A DNA stretch of 64,000 nt from Dictyostelium discoideum (Eukaryota), in NCBI GenBank assembly GCA_000004695.1, contig CM000154.2, positions 2,240,001-2,304,000 of the forward strand, read 5' to 3'. Below the pieces are notes generated by a model. That model made no database searches and was not told the DNA's origin. It worked only from the letters and a program-made list of their open reading frames with translations. The position numbers and the translations under genes are program-made. Shown here piece after piece: positions 7,811-64,000 of this stretch. Each line of letters begins with the position of its first letter. The first letter of the stretch is position 1.

Positions 7811-8483
7811 TGTAAAAAAAAAAATGTTGGTGTTAATAGATCATTAAAAATATAAAACTCTTTTATGTACAAAAAAAGAGAAAAAAACAAAAATGAAAAA
7901 ATAAAAAAGAGAAGAAAAAAAAAAAAAAATAGATAAAGAAAAGAGAAAATTAAATTAAAAAAAAAAAAAAAAAAAAATGAGTGATAGTGAGTGTAGAAAT
8001 TGAATTAAATTAAAAAAAAAAAAAAAAAAAAATTTAAATTTTTTAGAGCGGTCGTTATTAAATTAAAAAAAAAAAAAATTAAAAAAATTAAAAAAATTTA
8101 AAAAAAATAAAAAAAAAAAAATAAATAAAAAAATAAATAAAAAAATAAATAAAAAAATGTTCAATTAACCTTTTTTTTTTTTTTTTTTTTTTTAATTAAA
8201 TTAATTGGGAAAAAAAAAAAAAAAAGTTTGATGTTATAACAATCATGGGACGAGGGTAATTAATTATGAGGAAACTAAATGGTTCCGTTCGTTTTTTAAA
8301 AAAAACAAAACAATTTAAAAAAAAAAAATTTTTAAAAAAAAAATTTTCATTTTTTTTTAATTTAATTTACATTATTTTTTTTTTTTTTTTTAAAAATTAT
8401 TCCCTATGGGGCCGGGGGGCTTATTTTTTTCAAAAACTCAAAAAATTTGGGCCCCAATGTTTTTTATTAAATAAAAAAAAAAA

Positions 8484-8527
<44 letters not shown>

Positions 8528-19643: not shown

Positions 19644-19985
19644 ACTTTTAAAGTAAAGTTGGAATATATATATATATTATATAGTTTTTATAAAATTTAT
19701 TATTATTTATAAATTATTAAAACAGGTTTTTTTTTTTTCGGGGTGGGGAATTAAAAAAAAAATTAAGGGAATTGGAAAAAAAAAAAAAAAATTTAAAAAA
19801 ATTGGAAAAAAAAAAAAAAAAAAAAATTAAAAAGGTTTTTTGAATCCTCAAATGAAAAATCAAAAAACTGTTTTTTTTAAAAAAAAAAACAATACCCTTT
19901 TTGATATTTGCTTTTTTTTCATTTTATTTTTTATTATTTTATTTTATTTAAAATACGGGATTAAATTTTTTTATTTGTTTTAATG

Positions 19986-20031
<46 letters not shown>

Positions 20032-20227
20032 GTTTGAGCTTATATGATTTTTTTTTATTTTTATTTTTAGAAAAAATTGCTTATAAAATGAAGAAAAAAA
20101 AAAAAAAAAAAACAATGCCCTGTAGTTTTGAATTTTTTTTAATAATAATATAAAATTATTTTTTTAATTTTTTATTTTTTTTTTTTAATGTTTTTTTTAT
20201 ATTATTTCAAAATATTAATCCCCGAGA

Positions 20228-20268
<41 letters not shown>

Positions 20269-20285
20269 CGTGTTTCAATTTTCAA

Positions 20286-23272
20286 ATGAAAGGAATAAAA
20301 ATAATTTTAATTTTATTTTTAATACTTAAAATAAATTTAATAAAATCTCAAGAACCAATAAATATATTTATTAAAAATGGTGATGATCTTTGTAAAATTA
20401 ATAATTATTTAATACCATTTTCAAATTCAACCTTACCAATAATTTTAAACATTCAGAATGGAAATTATTATTCAACATGTAAAATAATAATAAATAATAT
20501 AAATAATTTAACTATAATACCCAATAATAATAAAAATAATAATAATAATAATGATAATAATGATAATAAAAATAATAATATTAATTTGATTGATATTGAA
20601 TTTGATTTTAAAGATTCAAATATTGAATTTTTAGAAATTAATTTTAAAAATCAAAATAATAGTAAAATTAATATTGAAAGTAGTAGTATAATATTAAGTG
20701 ATAGTAAATTAATATTAGGGGTATATTTTGAAAGTTTAAAAAGTTTTTTAAGAATTAATAATTCAATTATTAGTGATTCAGTATTTGTAATTTATAATTC
20801 AACAGTTTTAATTGATAATTCAACGATTAAATTCAATGAAATTTTTCAATATATAATAACGGCGACTAATACTACTACATCTTATTCATTATTACTTTAC
20901 AGTATATTTTCACAAAGTGAAACAAATATATCAATTAAAAATGGAATAATTGAATCAAATGGTTATTATAATAGTAATTTACAATTATTTAGTGATGGTA
21001 TTGAAGATTTAACAAATTCAATAACAATTGAAAATATAATAATTAAAGGATTTTCAAATAGTAAATTATTAATTGAAGCAAATGGAAATCAATTAATTAT
21101 TACAAATATTACCATAACAAATTGTAATTCAATAGTATTCATTTCAACTCAATCAATTCAATCAATTACAATAAATGGTATATTATTAATTGGAAATAAA
21201 AATTTTATATTAATTTATATAAATAAACTTTGTAATTTAAATATAAAAAATTTATTAACTAGTTGTGATAATGGTGTAAATAAAAATTCAGCATTAATTA
21301 AAAGTAGTGAATATATTGAACTTAATAATAATAATAATAATAATAATACAACAAATTATCAAATAAATATTAGTAATTCAAAATTACATTGTTTTGGAAA
21401 TTCAATTTTTAAAAGTTCAGAAATTAAAATTGAAAATGTTTCAATTTTAACGAATCCATTATTTCAAATTGATGATAGTTTTTTCATATTAAATAATAGT
21501 GATTTAAATATGAAATCAAGTTCAATAGTTTCAATTAGTTATTTTAAAGTATTGAGTGATTATTTCTTTCAACTTGAAAATCAATCAAATTTAGTAATTG
21601 ATAATTGTACATTTACAAACAGTACATCTGGAATGATATCAGCAATCAATAAATCTAAAGTATTATTATCAAGTATAGTTATTAATAATATTCAATTAGA
21701 TAATATACCATTTTTTAATATTAATAATTATTCACAATTAGTGATATCAAATAGTAGTAGTAGTAGTAGTAATCAATACAATGGTGTGATTATTGGTTTA
21801 AATATTAAAAAATATTATGGAACCAATTCACCATTAATTCTATCAACTTCAAATTCTATAATAAATATAGAATCATTAGAATTATCAGAAATTTCATTTA
21901 ATTCAAATAATAAAAATAATAATTATAATGTAATTGCAATTATAAATTTATTTTCATCAAGTTTATATATTAAAAATTCAATAATATCTCATTGTTATTC
22001 AACAGATTCAATTTTTAATTCAAATGATGGAACTGATTTTTTAGTTGAAAATGTAAAATTCTTTCAAAATTTTATAATATCATCTCAACAAAGCACAACA
22101 AGAAAACACAACAGAATTTATTTGGTAAAAGGATGGGTAGTATATTTGAACTGCAGGTTGATAATGTGAATTTTACAAATGTAGAATTTAAAAAGAATTC
22201 ATTTAGTCCAATATTAGGAACCTATAAATCAAATAATATAATATTAAATAGTATTATATCTGAGGATAATTTGGGATCATTTTGGTTTTCAACAAATGAT
22301 AAAAACTTGATTTCAAATAATTTATCATTGATTAATAGTAGAGTCCCAATTAATTATTTCTTTGGCTCATTATTTTCAAAAAATATAACATTTTCAAATT
22401 TATCATTAAAAAATAACTATTTCTTAAATTACTTATTTGATATTTATTATGGTGATTTGGTATTGTTTGAAAATGTTACATACTTTAATAATAAAGTCAT
22501 TAGTACACAAGGTAAAGATAATTGGCCATTCTTAAATAGGTATATGTCTCCAATGGATTTAACATACTCTCAATTTAGATTCTTAAATAATAATCAATTA
22601 AAATTTAAAAATTTCAATGTAATTGATAATCATTTCTTTTCAAGCATGATTTATATTTATGAATCAAATTTTATATTTGAAATTGGTAATATTGAATTTA
22701 ATAAATTTTATAATTATTCAAGAACTTCATTTTTAATTTCACAACATTCAATAATAAATTTAAATAAAATTAATTTCATTTCAAATAATTCAACTTATAA
22801 TATTTTATTTGATAGTGATAGTGATATTAGTGGTGGTGGTAGTAGTGGTAATAATAATATAAAAGGTGAAAATGAAATATTTGGATTAATTTATACATTT
22901 AATTCAAATTTTACTATGGATTCTGGTATACTCTTATGGAATGATTTCCCATTTAGTAATGGTTCAATAATTAATCATGCTTGTTTATCATCATCAGTAC
23001 ATTCCTATACTCTTTCAATTATTAATTCACAAATTTCTAATAGTATTTCAAATTTTGGTACTTTACATTTAGAATTTTCAATGGATAAAAATAATCAAGT
23101 TTTATTAAAAAATAATACATTTTCAAATAATTTTGCAAAAACTGGTTCTGTACTATATGTAATTGGTTTTGGTAATATTGGTAATTATAATCAATCAATT
23201 TTTTATAATTCAAATAGTTTTCAAAATAATTCTTGTATTTTTGGTAATAGTATAATTTCTTCAGGTATTTAT

Positions 23273-23304
<32 letters not shown>

Positions 23305-25121
23305 CCAAATAATAAAATAAAGGTATTATTTAATAAATAATTAATTAATAAAAATTTATTTTATAATTAGGAATTCCAAAAATTTTCCCAATTGAAAAAA
23401 TTATTGTTTATGGTGGTGACCAAATTGAAATTAATTTTCCATTTATTGATTATTTTAATAATCCAATTGATTATATTCCAGGTGTAAAAAATTTATCAAT
23501 ATCAATTTTAAATCCTTCAAATTCACCAAATCGTATAGATCAAGTTTTTATTCCACCAAATGTAATATCTGGAATAGGTACAATTTTTTATACATTTAAT
23601 GTTAGTAAAGAGGTTGAATTTAAAATTTTTTTTTTAAATTTTCAAGATTTAAATCCAATTAAAGTAAATGTAATAGGTTGTTCACCTTTTACTTTTCCTG
23701 ATAAACAAAAGGGTTGTTCTTTTTGTCTAATTGGTTCAACTGTTAAAAAAAGATATTATTATGATGATGATGATCTTATTGAACCTTGCAAAATATGTCC
23801 AGATAGTTTAACTTGTGAGAATGGAGATGTTTATTCCCATGTTGGTTATTATTTAATTAATCAAGATGTATCATTGGTTTACCAATGTGCATTAGATATG
23901 TGTTTAGAAAATAATCAATGTTCAAATAAAAATAATTATGGTGATTTATGTTTTGAGTGTATTGATAATGATGGAAATCAAGTTGTTTCAAAAAATGGTA
24001 TTCAATGTTGTTCAAAATTTATAGGTTGGTTAATAATTCCAATTATTTTAATTTATTTAATATTTGGTTTAATTCTATCTTATATAAAATATACAGTATT
24101 TAATAGTTTATTATGTAAATCCATATTATTTATTCAAATTAATTCAGTGATTTTCTTTCCTTATAGTGGTATTTATTTTTTACCATTATTTAGAGGTTCA
24201 CTTGATATGATTGATGGTATTTGTTTATCAAAGAATTTAAACTATATTGGCAAAGTATACTTGTCATATTTAATAATAATTTTATTATTTATAATTGGTT
24301 CAACTGATATAACAATTAAGTTATTTATTAAAATTTATCAAATATTTTTTAAAAAATCTAAAGAGTCAACAGTATTACCAAATTTCATAGTAAAAATATT
24401 AATAAGAAAAAAACAATATGGAGAATTTAATTATAAAATGAAATCTTTGTTTTCACTATTTCAAATTTTATTAATACCATTACTTTTCAATTCAATTTCA
24501 ATGTTGGTAAAGAAAAATATTCTTTACAACACCACTCGATTAATAATGGATTTTTCAATAATCAATTCTTCAAATCGAACCTTTTTACAAATTATTTCAA
24601 TACTTTTATTAATAATAATTGGTTTTTTTATTTTATTAGTGGTTTTAATATTTAATTTAAAAACATTTTTAAAATTAGTTAAAAAATTAGGACTAAATCT
24701 AAAATTCATTGAAAAATTTAAATTACAATCAAAATTAATTCAAATTTTAAATACTGACACAAGTAATAGTATATATAGGAATCAATTTAAATGGTGGAAT
24801 GTTATTGAAATTATTAGATCAATTATATTTTCCATTCTTTCAATATCAATGATATTCTCACCAAATTATTATATGTTAATTATAGTTTCAATACAGTTTA
24901 TCTATACATTCCTTTATATATTTTTTGAACCATTGCAAAAGAAATATTATTTTAAAAATATTTTAATTAATTTTTCCCAATTAATAATTTTTACAATTTT
25001 TGGTTCCTCTTTATTTCAAACATTGATTTTACCATTTTTTAAAGGTTTAATAATTTCAATTTTATCTTTTTTGGTTTTTATTATTATAATTTTTTTTAAA
25101 AAAATAAATAAAAATAAATAA
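20286..25121 (+). CDS. Large (~1565 aa) secreted/multi-pass membrane protein: signal peptide, Asn-rich beta-helix-like repeat region, Cys-rich module, ~9 TM helices. Model: 20286..22124, 22157..23264, 23371..25121
   Basis: N-terminus MKGIKIILILFLILKINLIKSQEP is a signal peptide. About 1000 aa of N/S/I-rich degenerate repeats follow, with many NxS/T sites. The Cys-rich segment is GCSPFTFPDKQKGCSFCLIGS...EPCKICPDSLTCENGD...QCALDMCLENNQCSNKNNYGDLCFECIDNDGNQ...CCS. It is followed by 9 hydrophobic helices (IGWLIIPIILIYLIFGLILSYI ... LIISILSFLVFIIIIFF). Track ORFs 1 and 2 are joined by removing a 32-nt GT..AG segment (22125..22156), which restores the frame. Exon 2 ends G|GTATTT before a T30 run. 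Exon 3 enters at ataattag|GAATTCC in phase 1 and is open through the TTG-started track ORF 23874..25121. Confidence 0.6.
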
Positions 25122-33600: not shown

Positions 33601-34162
33601 TGTTTTTTTTTTTTTTTTTTTTATCAAATAATAACAATCCTCTTAGTTAACTAAAACAATTTTTAAAAAAAAAAAAGATTTTTATTTTTGTTTTTTTTTT
33701 TTGTTTTTTTTGTTTTTTTTTTTTTTATTTTATTTTATTTTATTTTGTTTTTTTTTATTTTATTTTATTTTATTTTTTTTTTTATTTTTATTTTTTCATT
33801 TAAAATAAATTAGAACAACCGTTAGCAAAACTAAAATGATAAATTTATATTTATTATACTTATATAAATAAATAATTATATAAATATATTTATATATATA
33901 TAATTTGTGGTGTGTAAAAGAATTAATTGTGACAGTAAATGGGAGGGGGGGAAAATTTTAAAAAAAAATAAATGAAAAATAAAAAAAAAAAATAATAAAA
34001 AAAATAATTATATGTATATATAGTAATTATAAAAATTTCCAATTGTAATAAATAATACATAAATTTAATAATAATAATAATAATTTTCCAAAAAAAAAAA
34101 TTTACTCATTTAATTCGATACATCAGATATTGGAATGTTTTTTTACAGAGTGGTGTTATTTT

Positions 34163-46109: not shown

Positions 46110-47552
46110 ATGAATTATAATTTCAAAAAAAAAGGTATAATATAACTTATAATTCTTTTTATAAATTTTTTTTTTTTTTTTTTTTTTTTAAAAAATCCAA
46201 GTTTTTTTTTTAAAAAAATAATAAATACTAATTATTATCATTTTTTATTTGTTTTTGTTATTTGTTATTATTATTTTATTTTTTTATTAGATTTAAAAGA
46301 TTGGTCAATTGAAGACACAAAAGAATGGATCAATGAATTTAAAAAAAGAGGACCAAATTTAGAGAATGTGGATTTTTCAAGATTTGAATGGGATGGTGAA
46401 CAATTATCATTATTTTCAATGTCAGATTTTCAAAGAATGTCACCTTATGGAGTTGCACTATACAGAAATTTATATTCACAACCTAAAATATTTCAAACAT
46501 TAAAAAAAAACAAAAGTATATCAAGTAGTGGTGGTGGAGGTGGTAGTAGTGGAGGTGGTAGTTATTTAAATAGTATTAATATTGGTAATATTGATTTAAA
46601 TGATGATTTAATTGAAAATGAAATTATTAACAGGACAGTTTTAATTAGAGTTGGTACAATTCATACATTTATTACATTTGGTGCTGGTTGTAGAATTGGT
46701 AAAAACTTAATATTGGTTTCAAAACATGTTGTTCATCATTCAACTTTTCCTCAAGATAAAATCATTTTCAATGTTGGTATTGTAATACCATCAAAATGGG
46801 TAACTGCAAAATTAATAGATCTAAGTCCAGATGATCAAACTGATTTAGCTTTATTAGAAATTATTGATTATGATTCAATTCATCATTTAAATTCTAATAA
46901 TAATAGTATTAGTAGTAGTGGTAGTATTAATAGTAAAGAATCAATAAAAAGTAGTGGTGGTGGTAGTGAATATGATAACAAATATAAAAATCAAAAACAA
47001 CAACATGATGAAAAAGATAATGAAGCAAGTGGTAGTAGTAACAATAATGATGATGAAAATTTAAATAAAAACCATATTGTAAATAGTAGTGAATTTACAT
47101 CACCATCATTTGATTATCATCATTTAGATGAATTAGAAAAGGAAAGAGAGAAACAAGATTATGAAATCATTTGTAATATTGAACCAATTAAATTCATTGG
47201 CCAAAATGAAGGATTATTGGGTAAAGATATTATTTTATGTGGTTTTCCAAAGGAACGTATTGATTTATCACTATGTCAAGAATTAAAGATAAAGGTTGAT
47301 ACAGTTTATCCATCCATTGAAAAGGGAACAGTATCATTTTCTGATGATAAACGTTTAGAATGTAACTCTGTACCAGAACCAGGTTACTCTGAATCCTCAT
47401 TAATCTTTTCAAAGTCTGATGCAAAATTTATTGGTTTGGTAAAGTCACAATATATGACTAATCCAAATAAATATTATTGTATACCAACTTCAACAATTTT
47501 AACTTGGATTAGTCAAGTTTCAAAAAAGAATTCAATCAATATTTCTTTTTAA
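46110..47552 (+). CDS. SAM-domain protein with a C-terminal trypsin-like (chymotrypsin-fold) serine-protease-like domain; 2 exons: 46110..46134 and 46291..47552; ~428 aa
   Basis: Exon 1 ATGAATTATAATTTCAAAAAAAAAG|GTATAA (phase 1) joins ttattag|ATTTAAAAGATTGG to give MNYNFKKKDLKDWSIEDTKEWINEFKKRGPNLENVDFSRFEWDGEQLSLFSMSDFQRMSPYGVALYRNL, which is a SAM-like segment. Downstream, RVGTIHTFITFGAGCRIGKNLILVSKHVVHH (His), DLALLEIID (Asp) and PEPGYSESSLIF (Ser-like GxSxS) resemble the Trypsin_2/DegP arrangement. The domain assignment is by motif only. Confidence 0.55.
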
Positions 47553-47918
47553 GAAAATAATAAAAAAAATAAAGACATTGTGAAAAAAAAAAAAAAAAAA
47601 CACACAACATTTTATTTTTTTATTTTTCAAAGATTTAATTTATTTTTAATATGGACAGAATATCTTTTTTTTTAAAACTAAAAAAAAAAAAAAAAAACAG
47701 AATGGTTACATTCATTTTTGCGTGTTTTTTGAGTGTTCTGTTTTATAAATTTAATCAATATTGAAAATAAATAAATTAAATCATTTTTAAAAAAAAATAA
47801 AAATTAAAAAAAATGAAAAAATTTGAAAGATTTTTTAATCTTTTTTTTTCATTTTTTTTTTTTTACTTTTTACTTTTTTTTTTAATCACTGCCCATAATT
47901 GCAAAATTACAACGTTTT

Positions 47919-47951
<33 letters not shown>

Positions 47952-47956
47952 AAAAA

Positions 47957-50485
47957 ATGGACTATGACTATGATAGTTCAGACTTACAGTATGATGATCA
48001 TAAACAAAATAGTAACTCTAAACTTGATACAAGTTTTAGATTGTTTAGGACAGGTACAATGTCATTATTTAACAATGTGGTAATAGTTGATTTCACATAT
48101 ACACCAACATCAATTTACTCTTGTCAATATACAATCATAGATTTAAATTATAAAGTTTTAGAAACTCAAAATATTTTATTCTCAAAAAGTACAAATGAAC
48201 CATTCAATGATAAAATGGATCAAATTAATAAAATGGTAAGATTCTCTTTCTCAATACCACACACACTCACACATTATTTTTACACAGTTTTTTTTACTAA
48301 TTTTATTTATAAATTTTTTTTTAAAAAAAAATAGATTTGTGATTCAATTGACAAATTAAGTGGAAGGGTTTTAGTACTTTCACCACAATCTGTTAATATC
48401 CCTTTATTAAATTTACCAATGTCAGTTCGTATATTTGATTTTCAACAAATTGCAAAAAAAAAGAAAATACCATTAAAATCATTTGATCAATTTAAAGATT
48501 GTAAATATACACCATATAAATGTTTTTTTTTTTTTTTTTTAAAAAAATTACTAATAATTTCTCTTATTATTATTATTTATTATTATTATTTATAAGATTA
48601 TAAAAATAAAAAACTTAATGTTGATTTTAAATTTACAATTTTATCATTATTTGTGGATCTTACAAAAAATTTTATTAAAAGTGATTTTAAGTTTCCATCC
48701 TTTAAACCAATTTTAATCGATATTAAAAGGGAAGGGTCCCTTGAAGGGTTCTTTGGACACTACATTTTTACAAATATTGAAATACCAATTGCAATAAAGA
48801 ATTTAATCAACGGATATAGAGATCATCTTAGAGAGAATAAATTACTATTAACACAACCAGAACTAGAAATAATAGACCAACAACAAGAAGAACATCAACA
48901 ACTACAACAACAATTACAACAACAACAACAACAATTACAACAACCACAACAAAAATCAGAAGTACAACAAAAATCTATTGTTGAAAATGAAGAAAATCCA
49001 CCAAGTGAAATGGAATCATCAATATCAGCTCCTCCACCTAGAAGAATTACACCAAATGAACTTTTAGATAAAAAAAAAAGAATTTTATTCTTAAAAAATT
49101 TAAAAAAATCACTTTTATTGAAAAAGCATCAACTTAATCACATCTCAAACCCTGATGCTGAAAATGATTTTAGTGAAATTGGTGAAACTACCCCAAAGAA
49201 AATAAAAGTATTAAATCTTGAAAAAGATAACAATAATAATAATAATAACGATAAAGATAATATATATTTAGAAAAGGATGATTCGCCAACTAAAGAAAAT
49301 AATAGTAACATTGCCACTACCACCAACACCAATCCCAATACCAACACCAACACCAATATCAACACCACCACTGCCAATAATAATGAAATAGCAAATACCG
49401 ACAATAATGTAAATAATGTTAATCAAGTAACTGATCAAGGTGATATCAAATACCATCACCAAGAATTAATTAGACAATTAACTAAACTAATTAGATTTGA
49501 ACAAAAATCTTTAAAAACTGATAGCAATAATAATAATGATAATAATGATAACATTGATGATAATAACAATAATATTAATAAAATCAGCCCAACTCCCCTC
49601 AGTACTTCCATCAATGATATTAATAATAAAAACAATACTACTAATATTACTAGCTCAATTCCACCCAATAGTACTAATAATAATAATAATAATAATATGA
49701 ACACAATTCCACTTGGCACTACCAATAATGATAATATTATCACAATTCCTCTCGATACTACCAATAATAATAATAATAATAATAATAATTTAAATCAAAT
49801 TAACCAAAATGAATTTAATCATAATATTTTATTACAAGTTCAAACCATTTTAGATAAAACCATTTTAAATCAACAATACTTTTTAAATGAAATTAATAAC
49901 TTATCTAAAAGGTTTGATAATATGCAAATTCAATTCGACTCAATATATAGCAAAATAAAATCAAATAATAATAATAATAGTATTGTTAATAATGGTAATA
50001 ATAATAATAATGGTAATAATAATAACTCAATAATTGATATTCAGAAAAAACAAAAAGAATTATTAGAAAAACAAAATAGAATTTTAGTTTTAAAGAATGA
50101 ATTACAAAAATTAGAATCTCAACAAGAACAAGTTAAACTTGAAAATGATAAAGATAAAATTAGAGATTCAAAAGAGAGATATAAATTCACAGGAAATAAA
50201 TATCCAAAAAAAATTAGTAATAATAATAGTAGCAGTAGTAGTAGTAGTAGTAGTAGTAGTAATAACATTATTAATAATAATAACCATCAAATTGATCCAT
50301 ACAATACCTATCAACAAAAACAAAAAACATCATTACAAAGAAGACCACCATTCAATAAACCAAATACCTCAAATGTCTTTATTAAAACTAAATTTAGACC
50401 AATAAATCATAGTGTTAGTGCTTTACCTCAAAAAAATACAATCATGTCTAGTTTCAGAAACTTTTTGAAATCTTTTAAAAAATAA
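47957..50485 (+). CDS. Hypothetical Gln/Asn-rich protein with a C-terminal coiled coil; multi-exon, structure only partly resolved. Exon 1 47957..48235; exon 2 from 48335 (end unclear, ~48500); last exon through 50485
   Basis: ATG at 47957 ([18 protein letters not shown]...[54 protein letters not shown]|GTAAGA). The acceptor aaaaatag|ATTTGTGAT opens [62 protein letters not shown], which then runs into a T18 tract and a stop. The large track ORF 48653..50485 starts at GTG and must be entered by splicing (...[33 protein letters not shown]...). I found no exon2-exon3 junction consistent in phase and signal. Confidence 0.4.
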
Positions 50486-50854
50486 TAAAAATAAAAATAA
50501 AAATAAAAACTAGAAAAAATAATAATAAAAATAAAAAAATAAAAAAATAAAAAAATAAAAAAATAAAAAAAATAAAAAAATAAAATAAATATAATAATAA
50601 AAATAGTTTTTTTAATTTTAATTATAAAAATAATAATAAAAAATTTTATTAATCAATTTTAGAATAATAATTTCCATTTTAATTATTATTATTATTATAA
50701 AATAATTAATTAATAATTAATATTGCAAAACATTTAATTCCCCCACTACTTATATAAATATTTACACACTGCTTTTATTAATTGGCTATAAGTGATCAAA
50801 AAAAAAAATAATAATAATTAAAAATTGTTTAGAATAATATTGGATAATGGAAAG

Positions 50855-50886
<32 letters not shown>

Positions 50887-51493
50887 AAAAAAATCTAAAA
50901 ATTAAAAATAAAAAAGTAAAAAGTCTATACTACAAATAATAATAATAGTAGTAGTGGTACTATTACAGTGGAAAGAAAGAGTAAAAAGATTTCTTTTTTT
51001 TATTTATTTTTTAAATTTTTATTTTTATTTATTTAATTTTTATATATCATAATCATCACTATTACCCCCATTTTTTAATTTTTTTTTTTTAATTTTAATT
51101 TTAATTTTAAAATTATTTTTATTTTTATTTCTATTTTTAAATAACACCCAAAACAATTTTTTTTTTTTTTTTTTTTTTTTTGGGATTTTTTTTTTTAAAG
51201 TCTCAATTATAATTATTCAACAAAAATAGATAAAAAACATTTAAATAAAAAAAAAAAAAAAAAAAAACCAAATTAAAAAATTAAAAAATTAAAAATTAAA
51301 AATAATAACCTATTATTTTTAATAAAAGATTGTCTTTTTTTTTTTTTTTTTTATTTAAATAATTTTTTTTTTTTTTTTTTTATTTGTTTAAGTTGCAATT
51401 TTTCTCATGTTGTCATATTCTTTCTATAATAATAATAAAATAAAAAATTAAAAAATTAAAAAATAAATTTAATAAATAATATTAAATAAAATA

Positions 51494-57048
<5,555 letters not shown>

Positions 57049-57385
57049 ACCATTTTTTAAAAAAAAAAAAAAATGAACGTCATTATTTGTTAAAATATCC
57101 AAATAAATTATAAAGTAATACTTTACTTTTTTTTTTTTTTTTTATTTTATCTTTTTTTTTTTTTTTTGTTTTTATTTATTTATAGTTTTACAATTATTAT
57201 TATCATTATTAGTTTTTTTTTTTTTTTATTTCTTTTTTTTTTTTATAATATATTACATAAAATTTGTTTGGAAAAAAAAAAAAAAAAAAAAACACTATAT
57301 GTGTTTTTTTAAATTTTTAGATTAATAATACATTATAAAAATTTAAATTAAAAATTATTTGTAATAAATTTTAAGAATTTAAAAA

Positions 57386-57997
57386 TTATATTGAAAATTC
57401 CAATTGATTTTGGTCAATGTTTTTAATGAAAACATGATAATGTGAAATTTCTTTTATACTTTGTAAATGAAAAGGATTGATAAAGAATAAGAAACCGTTA
57501 TCGTCATTGCTGAATTCTCTATTTGTAAGTTTTGAAATGAGTTGTTTTGCATCCTCATGATCAAGAGGTTTTAAACACCATAATACCCAATGTGAGATTG
57601 ATTTATCGCAACTGTATGGGAAATCGTTTGGTCTAAAAACTAATTTTTGTTCTAAATTCTCTGGTCTAATAGTTATTAATCTATTGAGTTCAATACCTTG
57701 TTCGTCTGTATAGCTTATAGTTTGTGTTGGAAATTTAAAAACTTTGAAATCAATATAATCTTTAATAGTTTTAAATTGTTGTTTTACAACCTTTAAATGT
57801 TTCTCCATCTCTGCTTGATCCTTTAATTTTCTACCCAATATTTCTAATCTATCACCTTGTATAATTTCTTTTAAATCTCTCCAATTCCTTTCACAATAAT
57901 CAAATTGTTGTTGTACTTTTATTTCTACATTTTCATTGTTACTATTGTTGACACAACAATTTTCGTTGTTTTCTTCAACTTGATTATTGTCTAACAT
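57386..57997 (-). CDS. Conserved hypothetical protein (203 aa), no confident family assignment
   Basis: ATG at 57995-57997 with an in-frame stop upstream. Non-low-complexity C-terminal half (..RPNDFPYSCDKSISHWVLWCLKPLDHEDAKQLISKL..FLFFINPFHLQSIKEISHYHVF..) with ordinary codon usage. Confidence 0.55.
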   Translation of the reverse strand: MLDNNQVEENNENCCVNNSNNENVEIKVQQQFDYCERNWRDLKEIIQGDRLEILGRKLKDQAEMEKHLKVVKQQFKTIKDYIDFKVFKFPTQTISYTDEQGIELNRLITIRPENLEQKLVFRPNDFPYSCDKSISHWVLWCLKPLDHEDAKQLISKLTNREFSNDDNGFLFFINPFHLQSIKEISHYHVFIKNIDQNQLEFSI

Positions 57998-58122
57998 TTT
58001 CGATGTTTTATTATCTTGGTTTTCTCTGAGATATTATTTAAACATTTTATATTAGAAAAAAAAAATAAAAATAAAAATAAAAAAATAAAAAAAATAAAAA
58101 AAAAAAAATAAAATAAATAAAA

Positions 58123-58154
<32 letters not shown>

Positions 58155-58635
58155 TAATATGTAATGACAAAAAAGAATTAAAAAAAAAAAGGGGAGAAAA
58201 AATACACCACTTTTTTTTAATTTTTATTTTTATTTTTATTTTTATTTTTTTTTTTATTCTACGAATAATATTTTATAATTAAAATAATATCACTTACAAA
58301 ACATCTATCATTTTATAATTTTATATCTTTTTTTATTGGGTCGATAAAAAGGATGCAATTGAATAGAAAAAAAAAAAAAAATCAATTTAAATTTAATATT
58401 AAAGGAAAAAAATAAATTAAAATAAAAAATAAAAATAAAAAAAACAAAAAAAAAAAAAACTAAATATTAACAAAAAGAGGTAATTGCCCACCTAAAGTTT
58501 GGTTGAATTATTTCTTTTACAATTTTTTTTTCGAGCATTGTTTGTTTTAAAAAAAGTCAGTGGAATAGGTTGATAAAAAAGTGCTTATTTTTCATAAAAA
58601 AAGATATTTTTTTCCTCCTTAAAACGTTTTGCTCG

Positions 58636-58677
<42 letters not shown>

Positions 58678-59491
58678 TTTTTTGTTTTTTTGAAATAAAA
58701 AATACATAATATCTATTTTGATATTTCTAAAAACCCTTCCCCAAGTGGGAATGGAACAAATAAATGCTTGACAAGAAATAAAATTAAAAAAAAATATAAG
58801 ATTAATTTTTTCTTTATTTTTAATTAATTCTTTACCATTTTTTTTTTTTTTTTTTTTTTTTTAAAAATCATTATAATTAATTTGATTAAAAAAAAAAAAA
58901 TAAAAAAAAAATAAATAAATATTGTCTAACCAAAAATAGAGTAGAACGAGGTTGGATTTTTTTTATAATCAATCAAAAAAAAATGAAAATAATGATATTT
59001 TGGGAAAAATGAAAATAATATTTTGAAAAAGTGATTGCATTTTTTTGTGTTTTGGTCAATTCTTTTTTTTTTCCACCTTTTTTTCACCTTTTTTTTCATT
59101 TTTTTTTTTAAAAAATAAAAAAATATTTAAAATTTTGCATATAATAATTTTATCAATAATAATTATTTCTCATATTAATATTTATTTATTTGTTACTAAA
59201 TTAGTAATAATAAATTTATTTTAATATGTAGATATTTTTTAAAGTTATTTTAATTGGTACTTTCTAAATATAGAAATATTCTAAAAATAACAAAATTAAT
59301 AATAAAAATAATAAATAACAATTTAAAACAAATACATTCTTAAATTTTGACAAATTTCCTAAAATAATATTTTCCAGAAATTTGAAATATTCTTTGGAAA
59401 TATATTTTTTTTTTTTATTTTTTTTTTTTTTTTTTATATATATATGTTAAAAGAATAAAATTTTTTTTTAAAAAAAAACAATTATTTTATT

Positions 59492-62095
59492 TTATTGACT
59501 TGTAATTTTTAATTCATCTTTTGATTTATCAGCAGAAATTGTAACAACTTGATGATCTTTAATTTTACCTTCAAGTATTTGTTTTGCCATTGGATTTAAT
59601 AGAGTTTTTTGAATAACACGTTTTAATGGACGAGCACCATAGATTGGATCATAACCTTGATCGGCCAACCAATCGAGACCATCTTCTTTAACATTGAGAG
59701 CTATATGTTTTTCAGTGAGTAATTTTCTGAGATCATCTAATTGAATTTCAACGATTTTATCCATATCTTTACGAGATAAACGATTGAAAAGGATCATATC
59801 ATCGATTCTATTTAAAAATTCTGGTGGGAAACGTGAACGAACTACACCCATTACCTCTTCTCTAGCTGTTGCTGAAGGTGTATTATCAGGTAAATTTGCT
59901 AAAATTTCTGCACCCAAATTACTTGTTAGGATTACCATTGTATTTCTGAAATCTATTTTCCTACCTTGACTATCTGTGATATGACCATCATCCAAAATTT
60001 GTAAGAGTAAATTGCTAACTTCTTTATGTGCTTTTTCAAACTCATCAAATAGAACCAAAGAGTAAGGACGTCTACGTACAGCTTCAGTTAATGTACCACC
60101 CTCTTCATAGCCAACATAACCTGGTGGAGCACCAATTAATCTACTTACAGAGAATTTCTCCATGTATTCAGACATATCTATACGAATCAAAGCATTTGGA
60201 CTATCAAACATGAATTCTGCCAAAGTTCTACAAAGTTGAGTTTTACCAACACCAGTTGGACCCAAGAATAAGAAGGAGCCCAATGGACGACTATGACTAT
60301 GGAGTCCAGCACGACTAATTCTAACGGCATTACTTACGGCAGTGACAGCCTCTGGTTGACCAATTACTTGTGAACCTAATTCATCCTCCATCTTAAGTAG
60401 TTTCTCCTTTTCACCCATGAGCATACTATGAACTGGAATACCGGTGGCTTTCGAAATTACCAAAGCAACATCTTTTGCAGTGACAGCATCACTCACCATT
60501 GAAATATCACTCGATTGTTCTTCACCCTCTTTTGGAATTTGTTTCTCCAATTGTGGTATAATACTATATGCCAACTCACCAGCTCTTGCCAAATCACCTT
60601 TTCTTTGAGCTTGTTGAAGTTCAATCTTTGCTCTATCCAATTTTTCAACTGCAGTTTTTCTAATGGAAAGTTGTTCTTTCTCCTTCTTCCAAACTTCAGT
60701 GAGTTTATTATATTGTTTATCTTTTTCTTTCAATTCCTTCTCTAACTTTTCACGACGTTCCTTTGAGACTTGATCTTTCTCCTTTTTCAATGCTTCCAAT
60801 TCAATCTTTGATACGATAATTTGACGATTTAAATTTTCAATCTCCTCTGGGAGTGATTCTTGTTGGAGACGTAAACGACTTGCAGCCTCATCGATTAAAT
60901 CGATTGCTTTATCTGGTAAGAAACGATCGGTGATATAACGTTGTGAATTTACAACAGCAGCCACCAATGCACTATCAGTTATACGAACACCATGATGAAC
61001 TTCATAACGCTCTTTTAAGCCACGAAGAATTGCGATGGAGTCCTCAACCGATGGCTCTTGAACTAAAACACTTTGAAATCTTCTTGCAAGTGCAGGATCC
61101 TTCTCAATGTATTTTCTGTATTCTGCAGTGGTAGTTGCACCAACACAATGTAAATCACCTCTTGCCAATTGTGGCTTCAACATATTCGATGCATCCATAC
61201 CACCCTCTACTGCACCCGCACCAACCAATGTATGAAGTTCATCAATGAATAATATTACTTCACCTTTAAAATGTGCGACATCCTTTAGAATCGATTTCAT
61301 TCTCTCCTCGAAATCACCTCTAAACTTTGCACCAGCCACAATCGATGCTAAATCCAATGTCAATACACGTTTATTCTTTATACTATCTGGTACATCACCA
61401 TTTATAATTCTTTGTGCTAAACCTTCAACAATTGCAGTTTTACCAACACCTGGTTCACCAATCAACACTGGATTGTTTTTAGTTCTTCTACTTAATACTT
61501 GAATTGTACGACGAATTTCTTCATCTCTACCAATTACTGGGTCTAATTTACCACTCTTTGCTATCTCTGTTAAATCTTTAGTATACTTTTTTAATGCTTC
61601 TCCTGGTGGAACATTATCAGGTGATACCCATGGTTCTAAATAATTAAAAATAAAAAAAAGGTGTTAAAAAAAGGAACCTTTTACCAATTATTTATATATA
61701 TATATGATTATTAAATAAATTTATTATTTACCTTGTGGTGGTGGTTGTTGACCTCCTCCATTGCCTCCTACATTAATTTATAAAAAAAAAAAAAATTTTA
61801 AAGAAAATATTTAAGTAAAATATTCAAAAAATTTATAAATTCTTCAATTATAATCATAAGATTATTATTTAATATTTATTTATTTACCTTGAAAATTTCT
61901 AATTTGTTGATAAAATAATGATGATGATGGTGATGAATTTGAAAACAATGAACTATTTGTTAAATTATTATTTTTATTATTGTTGATTAAAATTTTATTT
62001 ATATTATTAGTTGTTGAAATAAAATATCTTTTATTTGAACTCTTAATAATATTTGAAATAGGATTAGTTTTAATAATATTTGATAATCTATTCAT
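59492..62095 (-). CDS. clpB: Mitochondrial ClpB/Hsp78-type AAA+ disaggregase lacking the ClpB N-domain; 3 exons: 61888..62095, 61732..61767 (36-nt micro-exon), 59492..61635; ~786 aa
   Basis: Exon 1 [29 protein letters not shown]...[10 protein letters not shown](G) is presequence-like and ends G|GTAAAT. Exon 2 is GA GGC AAT GGA GGA GGT CAA CAA CCA CCA CCA CAA G ([11 protein letters not shown]), bounded by aatgtag and GTAAAT. Exon 3 enters at tatttag|AACCATGG: [77 protein letters not shown]..., almost identical to E. coli ClpB NBD1. The coiled-coil M-domain and NBD2 ([12 protein letters not shown]...GARPLKR) follow. The track ORF 59492..61468 starts at an internal GTG. Confidence 0.8.
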
Positions 62096-62518
62096 GTTTT
62101 TTTTTGTTATGTATATTAATTAATTTCTTTTTTTTTTTTTTTTTTTTTTTTTTTGTATCAAATGTACAAAGAATTAATAATGTCTTAGAAAATTAAAAAA
62201 ATAAATTGAAAAAAAAAATAATAAAATAATAAAATTCAATTATAATTTGTTTGGAGTTTTTTTTTTTTTTTTTATGGAATAATTTAATTATTATCTTTGA
62301 AATTTTGTGTGTAATAAACTACAAATAATCTAAAATAGCAATGTTGCTGTGTGTATGTGAAAATGTAAAATAAAAAAAAAAAGGGTGAACATGCCACTAT
62401 TTAATTTAAAAAATTTTTTATTTTTTTATTTTTTTTATTTTTTTATTTTTATTTTTCGTCTAAATTGCGTTTAAAAAAAAATGAAAAATAATTGCAATTT
62501 AATTTAAAATTCATAGCC

Positions 62519-62558
<40 letters not shown>

Positions 62559-62812
62559 ATTTTTAAAAGGGATTGGGTGGGTTTAATTTAATAATTTTTT
62601 TGGTTTTTTTAATTTCCATTTTGAAGGAGGTTTTTAATTTTTTTTAGTGAAATGAGTTTGAAAAAAAAAAAAAAAAAAAAAAAAAAACTATTTTTGGAAG
62701 TGATTGCTTTTGTTTTTTATTTCACTTTTTTTTTTTTTTTTTTTTTTTTTTAGTGTTTGGTTGGGTTTCTTAATTTCTTTTAGTGCATTGAGTTTTTTTT
62801 TAAAAAAAAATC

Positions 62813-64000
62813 TTAGTATTTAGAAGGTGAAGAGGATCTTCTTCTATACCCTCTGCTTCTACTTCTACTTCTGCTTCTACTTTTACTTTTATTCAAACTC
62901 CTACTTCTACTTCGACTTCTACTATAATCTCTAACTCGTCTATTTCTACTTCTACTTCTGCTTCTACTTCTACTTCTACTTAAACTTTTATTTATTCTTT
63001 TATTGTTATTTGAGTTTCTTCCAAAACTTCTACTTCTGCTTCTACTTCTACTTCCACTTTTACCTCTACTTCTACTTCTTGTTCTACTTCTACTATAGTT
63101 TCTTCTTCTTGGACTATAATCTCTATCAATTGATCTATTATTATTATTATTATTATTATTGTTGTTATTATAATGATCTCTATTATATCTACCACCTCCA
63201 CTATTTCTTCCACCACTTGAAATTCTATATCTATTATCTCTATTATCTCTAACATCTCTCATATCTCTACTACTACCACTACCACCTCTATAACTACTAC
63301 TACCACTAGAAGTGGTAGTAGTTCTTCTTTGATCAATTCCTCTTGATTTAAAAGATTGACTTGAAGAAGGTTTTGGATTTAAATATCTTACAGTTACAAT
63401 TTGACCATCGATTCTACCACCATCCATATATCTTTTTGCTTTATCTCTTTCATCTTTTTGATGAAAATACAATAAAGCATAACCCATTGGTTGATCAATT
63501 TCTTTGTCCCATAAGAAATCAATATCTTTTATTGAACCGAAATTTTCAAATATCTCTTGTAAATGGTCTTTATTAACATTGGGTGTTAATCTATCAACTC
63601 TAATTGGTGATAAACTATATGATCTTGGTGGTGGTGGTGGTGGTGGTGGTAAAGTTGATCTTGATCATACTTCTAGATCTTGATCTAGAATGTGAATTTC
63701 TTGGACGATTATTATTGTTGTGATGATGATGATGATGATGATGATGATGTTGTTGTTGTTGGTGATGATATTGCTTTTTTGGAGGTGGTGATCTACGTCT
63801 TGGTGAACGTGATCTTGATAATTGTCTTCTGTATGGTGATGGTGATCTCGCTCTAATTGGTGAACGTGATCTTGATAATTGTCTTCTTGATGATGATGAT
63901 GATGATGAATGTAATGGCGACCTTCTACTACTACCAACACCACCACCACCACCTCTATAATTACTTTCTCTATAGGGTGAGCTACTTTTTTTATCATTAT
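62813..64000 (-). CDS. rnps1: RNPS1-like SR protein, 5'-partial: N-terminal RS region (continues past the window end), RRM, C-terminal RS domain. An apparent frame change lies between the RS region and the RRM at ~63618-63664
   Basis: Frame A (63664 to 62813): SRSTLPPPPPPPPRSYSLSPIRVDRLTPNVNKDHLQEIFENFGSIKDIDFLWDKEIDQPMGYALLYFHQKDERDKAKRYMDGGRIDGQIVTV.... Human RNPS1 has KVHIGRLTRNVTKDHIMEIFSTYGKIKMID...KGYAYVEFENPDEAEKALKHMDGGQIDGQEITA. A long RS-dipeptide tail follows. Upstream, the RS-type sequence (..RSRSPIRARSPSPYRRQLSRSRSPRRRSPPPKK..(H)n..NNNNRPRNSHSRSRSRS) is in a different frame that terminates at TAG 63615-63617. Frame A has TGA at 63665-63667. Confidence 0.6.

Follow-up and report, generated by a model that had tools for sequence, protein, structure and literature searches.

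Human RNPS1 (ASAP/PSAP complex, PDB 4A8X) carries a single RRM between Ser/Arg-rich regions. Its plant orthologue, SR45, has two RS domains around one RRM, and plant-like SR45 relatives show a poly-Pro run right before the RRM (..SPSPPPPPPPPRKASPPPESTVLHVDHL..). The gene described here lies on the minus strand at the end of a 64,000-nucleotide stretch of Dictyostelium discoideum DNA, referred to below as the window. Like human RNPS1, its predicted product has one RRM flanked by Ser/Arg-rich regions; it differs from the human protein in having His10, Asn runs, a Pro8 linker and much longer RS/RD repeats. With SR45 it shares the two RS domains around one RRM, and its Pro8-RSYSLSPIRVDRL segment compares with the poly-Pro run of the plant-like relatives. 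Identity to SR45 is 40–47%, in the RRM only, and the low-complexity regions are unalignable.

As the window is written, the N-terminal RS region and the RRM lie in different frames. Two kinds of described system provide models for such an arrangement. In programmed +1 genes (antizyme, bacterial RF2, yeast Ty1, EST3 and ABP140), two ORFs overlap in a +1 relation, as they do here. The Dictyostelium gene differs from this group in that its orthologues have no break, no shift site can be recognized and a sister allele is intact. Frameshift errors of draft or Sanger-era assemblies are the second model. The locus is like them in having a single-base indel found in one record, clustered with other differences and missing both in a near-identical re-assembly and in relatives, and also in that a second example lies within the same window (22094–22115).

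The gene as recorded

Translation of the three minus-strand frames, together with reading of 62400–64000, reproduces the break that a sequence-only reading of this DNA had described, including the TAG, the TGA, the 47-nt overlap and the +1 relation. The N-terminal RS-rich region, with His10 and Asn4 tracts, occupies frame A (63668–64000, minus strand) and continues past the end of the window; the gene in the sister assembly GCA_054883475.1 has 117 more codons upstream of that point and starts MGDNNNNN. Frame A reads ..RRQLSRSRSPRRRSPPPKKQYHHQQQQH10NNNNRPRNSHSRSRSRS and then enters a short shifted run that ends at TAG 63617–63615. Frame B, which is +1 with respect to frame A, is closed upstream by TGA 63667–63665. 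It continues as SRSTLPPPPPPPPRSYSLSPIRVDRLTPNVNKDHLQEIFENFG... through the RRM into a long C-terminal RS/RD/Asn-rich region (SRSTLPPPPPPPPRSYSLSPIRVDRL...MGYALLYF...YMDGGRIDGQ...). This low-complexity region (62813–63400, minus strand) includes the stop codon at 62815–62813. The open stretches of the two frames share the 47 nt of 63618–63664, with the codons ATC AAG ATC AAC TTT (ACC)8 AAG ATC ATA TAG. Within this overlap, the (CCA)8 tract (63626–63649, minus strand) is read as Pro8 in the true frame and forms the linker immediately N-terminal to the RRM. The repeat noted in the earlier reading is present; its count is corrected to eight ACC/CCA units in total (63650–63626), with no further ACC unit. 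The TAG (63615–63617, minus strand) is out of frame in the true frame (..tat agt..) and is met only through the extra T described below.

The RRM (63401–63604, minus strand) is recognized in frame B as Pfam RRM_1 with E=1.1e-12. Against solved structures, the human RNPS1 RRM (4a8x_A, E=1.3e-15) is the top of 92 PDB matches, with SRSF2 ranked second (1.2e-10); the single RRM is nearest that of RNPS1. Some matches to the uninterrupted 512-aa protein carry the names SR45 or 'RNA-binding protein with serine-rich domain 1'. The RNPS1-like label that had been given from the DNA letters is borne out by the top structure match and by these SR45-named proteins. In the intact allele and in five orthologues, Ser/Arg-rich regions stand on both sides of the RRM in one polypeptide. 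By predicted domain order, this is an ordinary RNPS1/SR45 orthologue with an RS domain, a Pro8 linker, an RRM and a second RS domain in ~512 aa encoded by a single exon.

Related loci in other assemblies and species

Protein-level searches retrieved relatives from outside the dictyostelids. A word-index search with the 165-aa RRM fragment as query gave no matches, and an exhaustive HMMER search gave relatives of at most 47% identity and no dictyostelids; the full 512-aa protein matched distant RRM/SR45-like proteins only. Dictyostelid members of the RNPS1-like family are absent from both protein libraries, including the 512-aa product of GCA_054883475.1, whereas the same assemblies are represented there by their ClpB-like neighbours. 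Because the libraries gave no dictyostelid relatives of the gene, its neighbours were used as anchors.

The first anchor was a 203-aa DUF3605 gene (window 57386–57997), which is on record in GCA_054883475.1, CM142511.1 (5.29 Mb). The locus retrieved through it (L001) is 99.68% identical to window 47375–64000 (16.6 kb). Here the RNPS1-like gene is one exon, L001:3659-5197, and encodes an uninterrupted 512 aa (...NNNNRQRNSHSRSRSRSRSRSTSPPPPPPPPRSYSLSPIRVDRL...). The second anchor was the ClpB-like neighbour. A search with its large exon returned a D. discoideum AX4 protein 100% identical to the window, together with matches from two further D. discoideum isolates, two 'D. cf. discoideum', D. citrinum, D. 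dimigraforme, D. purpureum and more distant dictyostelids. Genome assemblies built from Nanopore and Illumina data are available for AX2-214 (N50 5.3 Mb) and for nine wild isolates (PMC12745789). From that report and the AX4-named identical neighbour protein, we infer that GCA_054883475.1 is AX2-214.

Five loci were retrieved from the ClpB-like matches: two D. discoideum isolates, D. cf. discoideum, D. citrinum and D. purpureum. In all five, a syntenic single-exon ORF (501, 506, 519, 476 and 429 aa) lies immediately upstream of the ClpB-like gene, and each orthologue aligns end to end with the 512-aa protein. No difference in the RRM separates the four D. discoideum and cf. discoideum assemblies, and that of D. 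citrinum is almost the same. All the aligned orthologues share the segment RS.SLSPI.VDRLTPNVN without change, and the Pro tract varies between strains in whole codons only (P10, P8, SP6). The comparison with other dictyostelid RNPS1 orthologues that had been proposed as a check thus yields one continuous frame at six loci out of six. The ancestral and general condition is therefore an uninterrupted frame, and only the window's record shows the break.

Exact-sequence look-ups found none of the following on record: the 224-aa ORF, the 245-aa frame-A product, the T-corrected 512-aa product, a model with a 73-nt intron and the AX2-type 512-aa protein. Nor did exact pattern scans with either version of the junction (T present or T absent) give a match in JGI metagenomes or GTDB genomes. 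Literature searches on RNPS1 in Dictyostelium, on the accession GCA_054883475 and on reference errors at the locus found nothing specific.

One extra base at 63667

The frame break is due to a single extra base at 63667, a T on the minus strand and an A on the plus strand. Alignment of the junction DNA shows that this base is absent from all six other dictyostelid loci (GCA_054883475.1 and the five retrieved through the ClpB-like gene). The base lies within RS-coding DNA, 14 nt upstream of the (CCA)8 tract. It converts AGT AGA TCA (S R S) to AGT ATG ATC, so that AGA is read as ATGA and the frame is shifted by +1. The TGA at 63667–63665, which closes the RRM frame upstream, is itself created by the insertion, and removal of the T in silico restores one 512-aa ORF. 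Of the explanations offered in the sequence-only reading, an indel is right in kind, one extra base, and wrong in place, as the base falls outside the (CCA)8 tract. A length change in the tract as the cause is ruled out; the tract is identical in GCA_054883475.1.

Two substitutions accompany the insertion. Base-by-base alignment to GCA_054883475.1 over ~600 nt of the gene finds exactly three differences, at 63703, 63667 and 63651. At 63651 (minus strand), 16 nt from the extra T, the window alone has T (tta, Leu); the base is C (tca, Ser) in each of the five D. discoideum-clade assemblies. The other substitution, at 63703 (minus strand), is 36 nt away from the extra T. Its base is C in the window (cca, Pro) and A in the four D. 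discoideum and D. cf. discoideum assemblies (caa, Gln); the window's C is also found in D. citrinum. The ~850 nt of coding DNA 3′ of the break (downstream of 63651) are 100% identical to the intact allele, so there is none of the decay of an old pseudogene.

Origin of the extra base

The extra T is probably a local error of the sequence record and not a true strain mutation; we put the probability of this reading at about 0.8. The frame break would then reduce to one spurious T at 63667, with the base differences at 63651 and 63703 alongside it. Its cause would be a short low-quality patch in the source record, which we infer to be the Sanger-era AX4 reference. The organism would most likely make the full-length protein from a single continuous ORF, and the break would have no biology of its own.

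Evidence for this reading comes from comparison of the window with GCA_054883475.1 over 1555–22880 and 27304–64000, ~58 kb. The two sequences show 175 differences. Nearly all are homopolymer-length differences or belong to dense patches in AT-rich non-coding DNA (local GC ≤25%); the few further differences at local GC >25% are in a non-genic patch at 8167–8486. Just two difference clusters fall inside genes that are continuous in GCA_054883475.1. Both are trios of differences spanning ≤53 nt, and both disrupt an ORF. The first is the trio 63651/63667/63703 (three differences in 53 nt). The second (three in 22 nt) consists, relative to GCA_054883475.1, of two insertions, C at 22094 and A at 22115, and a substitution at 22107, where the window has C in place of T. 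It splits a plus-strand gene (~20183–23320), which encodes 1820 aa in GCA_054883475.1, into ORFs 20286–22169 and 22133–23320. Two ORF-breaking trios containing single-base insertions, in coding DNA that is otherwise identical, have the appearance of short low-quality consensus patches. Two signs expected of a record error are found. The variant occurs in one record only, being absent from a near-identical independent assembly and from relatives, and it clusters with other discrepancies, with a similar cluster elsewhere in the record. A comparable picture has been published for another region: the AX2 and AX4 tgrBC loci are 99.5% identical, with the coding regions of tgrB and tgrC unchanged (PMC12745789). 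Non-coding differences with unchanged coding DNA are the same pattern as that seen between the window and GCA_054883475.1. One observation counts against an error of the record: the C at 63703 equals the D. citrinum state and hence is not obvious noise.

The main competing explanation is a real, recent, strain-specific frameshift. The laboratory strain would carry the T and the two nearby changes as a young pseudogene or null allele, and the RNPS1 orthologue would be cut to a 245-aa RS-only protein without the RRM. The sequence record does read this way, and the undecayed downstream sequence fits a very recent event equally with an error. The T also lengthens the inverted repeat GTATGATC/GATCATAT, an outcome that template-switch mutation could produce. 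Derivation of AX3/AX4 involved mutagenesis. Loss of RNPS1/SR45 is tolerated in some organisms, and Arabidopsis sr45 mutants are viable. Against these points stand three derived changes in 53 nt, in coding DNA that otherwise equals that of the sister assembly over tens of kilobases. The measured nuclear mutation rate of D. discoideum is very low, 2.9e-11 per site per generation (PMC3466296), and because of this rate three independent real mutations within 53 nt between sister laboratory lines are very unlikely. Moreover, a similar trio (two 1-nt insertions and a substitution in 22 nt) breaks an unrelated gene 41 kb away. This second trio points to a property of the record, rather than to selection or a mutational event at the RNPS1-like gene. 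An error is favoured over a real mutation because the differences cluster and because the window holds this second lesion. A real frameshift is accordingly an unlikely account of the locus, and the stronger proposal that AX4, the probable source, is a natural RNPS1/SR45 truncation mutant with the RS domain only, its sister strain AX2 being intact, is slightly less probable again.

Dense patches of differences are also seen in AT-rich non-coding DNA, at 8167–8486 (~50 differences in 320 nt), 19694–19989, 34028–34088, 51077–51268 and 62556–62652. Such patches may reflect poor sequence quality in one assembly or faulty assembly of AT-rich repeats. The 3′ flank of the gene (62556–62800, minus strand) contains two similar motif copies, ..actcaatgcactaaaagaaattaagaaaccc.. 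and ..actcatttcactaaaaaaaattaaaaacctcc.., with A/T runs between them, and one of the copies is the site of ~20 inter-assembly differences.

Splicing and recoding

Two further explanations would keep the T and still join the frames. The first is a missed spliceosomal intron. All GT..AG pairs that join frame A to frame B were enumerated, giving 150 frame-restoring pairs. The shortest spans 73 nt, from a donor at 63670 (GTATGA) to an acceptor end at 63598, and its existence is the point in favour of splicing. It has 41% GC, compared with 8% and 12% in the introns of the ClpB-like neighbour (120 and 96 nt, respectively, with GTAAAT..TAG ends), as inferred from the called gene span and product length. 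The other frame-restoring pairs inspected below 400 nt have 31–39% GC and are coding-like in this respect. The sequence-only reading had remarked on the lack of AT-rich intron-like sequence, and this holds over the whole region: GC is 27–41% throughout 63500–64000 and nowhere below 27%, compared with 9–15% in flanking intergenic DNA. The 11-nt GT..AG interval that it had listed does exist (63670–63660); it fails as a frame-restoring intron because 3n+1 nt must be removed and 11 is 3n+2. Excision of the 73-nt candidate would take out the Pro tract together with RSYSLSPIR, where RRM strand β1 begins; RSYSLSPIR is largely unchanged among the six orthologues. An AG (ATTAG) also comes before the required acceptor, and all six orthologues are called as single-exon genes. 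The region thus offers neither an AT-rich, frame-restoring GT..AG interval of the Dictyostelium type nor a non-conserved segment that could be removed. With GC content, local introns and conservation all against it, the possible missed intron raised earlier has no plausible candidate, and splicing is a highly improbable way to join the frames.

The second is programmed +1 ribosomal frameshifting within 63664–63618, which would join the RS domain to the RRM. In its favour are two long ORFs in a +1 relation with a 47-nt overlap, and a local RNA fold better than that of shuffled sequence (z=−3.4). The predicted structure consists of an RS-coding palindrome and a stem made by the extra T itself. 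The overlap contains no known shift site: upstream of the Pro tract, no slippery P-site codon is paired with an in-frame stop or a rare codon. Its only stop is the terminal TAG after ATA, which matches no known motif, and a shift at ATA TAG would swap the Pro8 linker, present in five of the six orthologues, for Thr8. The break is absent from all six other loci, including the almost identical sister, and there is no conserved recoding site. Neither a conserved discontinuity nor a recognizable shift site in the overlap was found, and the unusual recoding event suggested by the sequence-only reading finds its answer in the continuous frame of the six other dictyostelid loci. Programmed frameshifting has, like splicing, a negligible chance of being correct.

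Significance and local context

The general importance of a record error at this locus is small. The window's record would misrepresent at least two genes, the RNPS1/SR45 orthologue and the gene at ~20183–23320. Gene models, proteomes and orthology tables drawn from it would show RNPS1 as split, truncated or missing in D. discoideum. If the extra base is real, AX4 and AX2 would differ in a splicing/NMD factor, which would matter for comparing the strains. With a true truncation in AX4, splicing and NMD would be expected to differ between the strains. Rescue by a +1 frameshift would be rarer still.

Two inverted repeats lie at or near the extra T. A perfect palindrome, TTCTAGAT CAAG ATCTAGAA (63671–63690, minus strand), lies in RS-coding DNA and is predicted to form an 8-bp hairpin. 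Running from 63690 to 63671, it stops 4 nt upstream of the extra base. The T completes a second inverted repeat on the minus strand, GTATGATC (63670–63663) with GATCATAT (63624–63617). One may speculate that the palindrome favoured a base-calling artefact or, with lower likelihood, a mutation by template switching.

Among the database proteins of the RNPS1/SR45-like type, P0023 and P0022 have C-terminal tails, such as HQEDDFHRQEDVYQDHVH, that look like RS-coding repeats translated in the wrong frame. Public gene models seem often to contain frame errors in RS-repeat genes. Frame B of the window, read upstream of its TGA, gives text similar to the tails of these two proteins.
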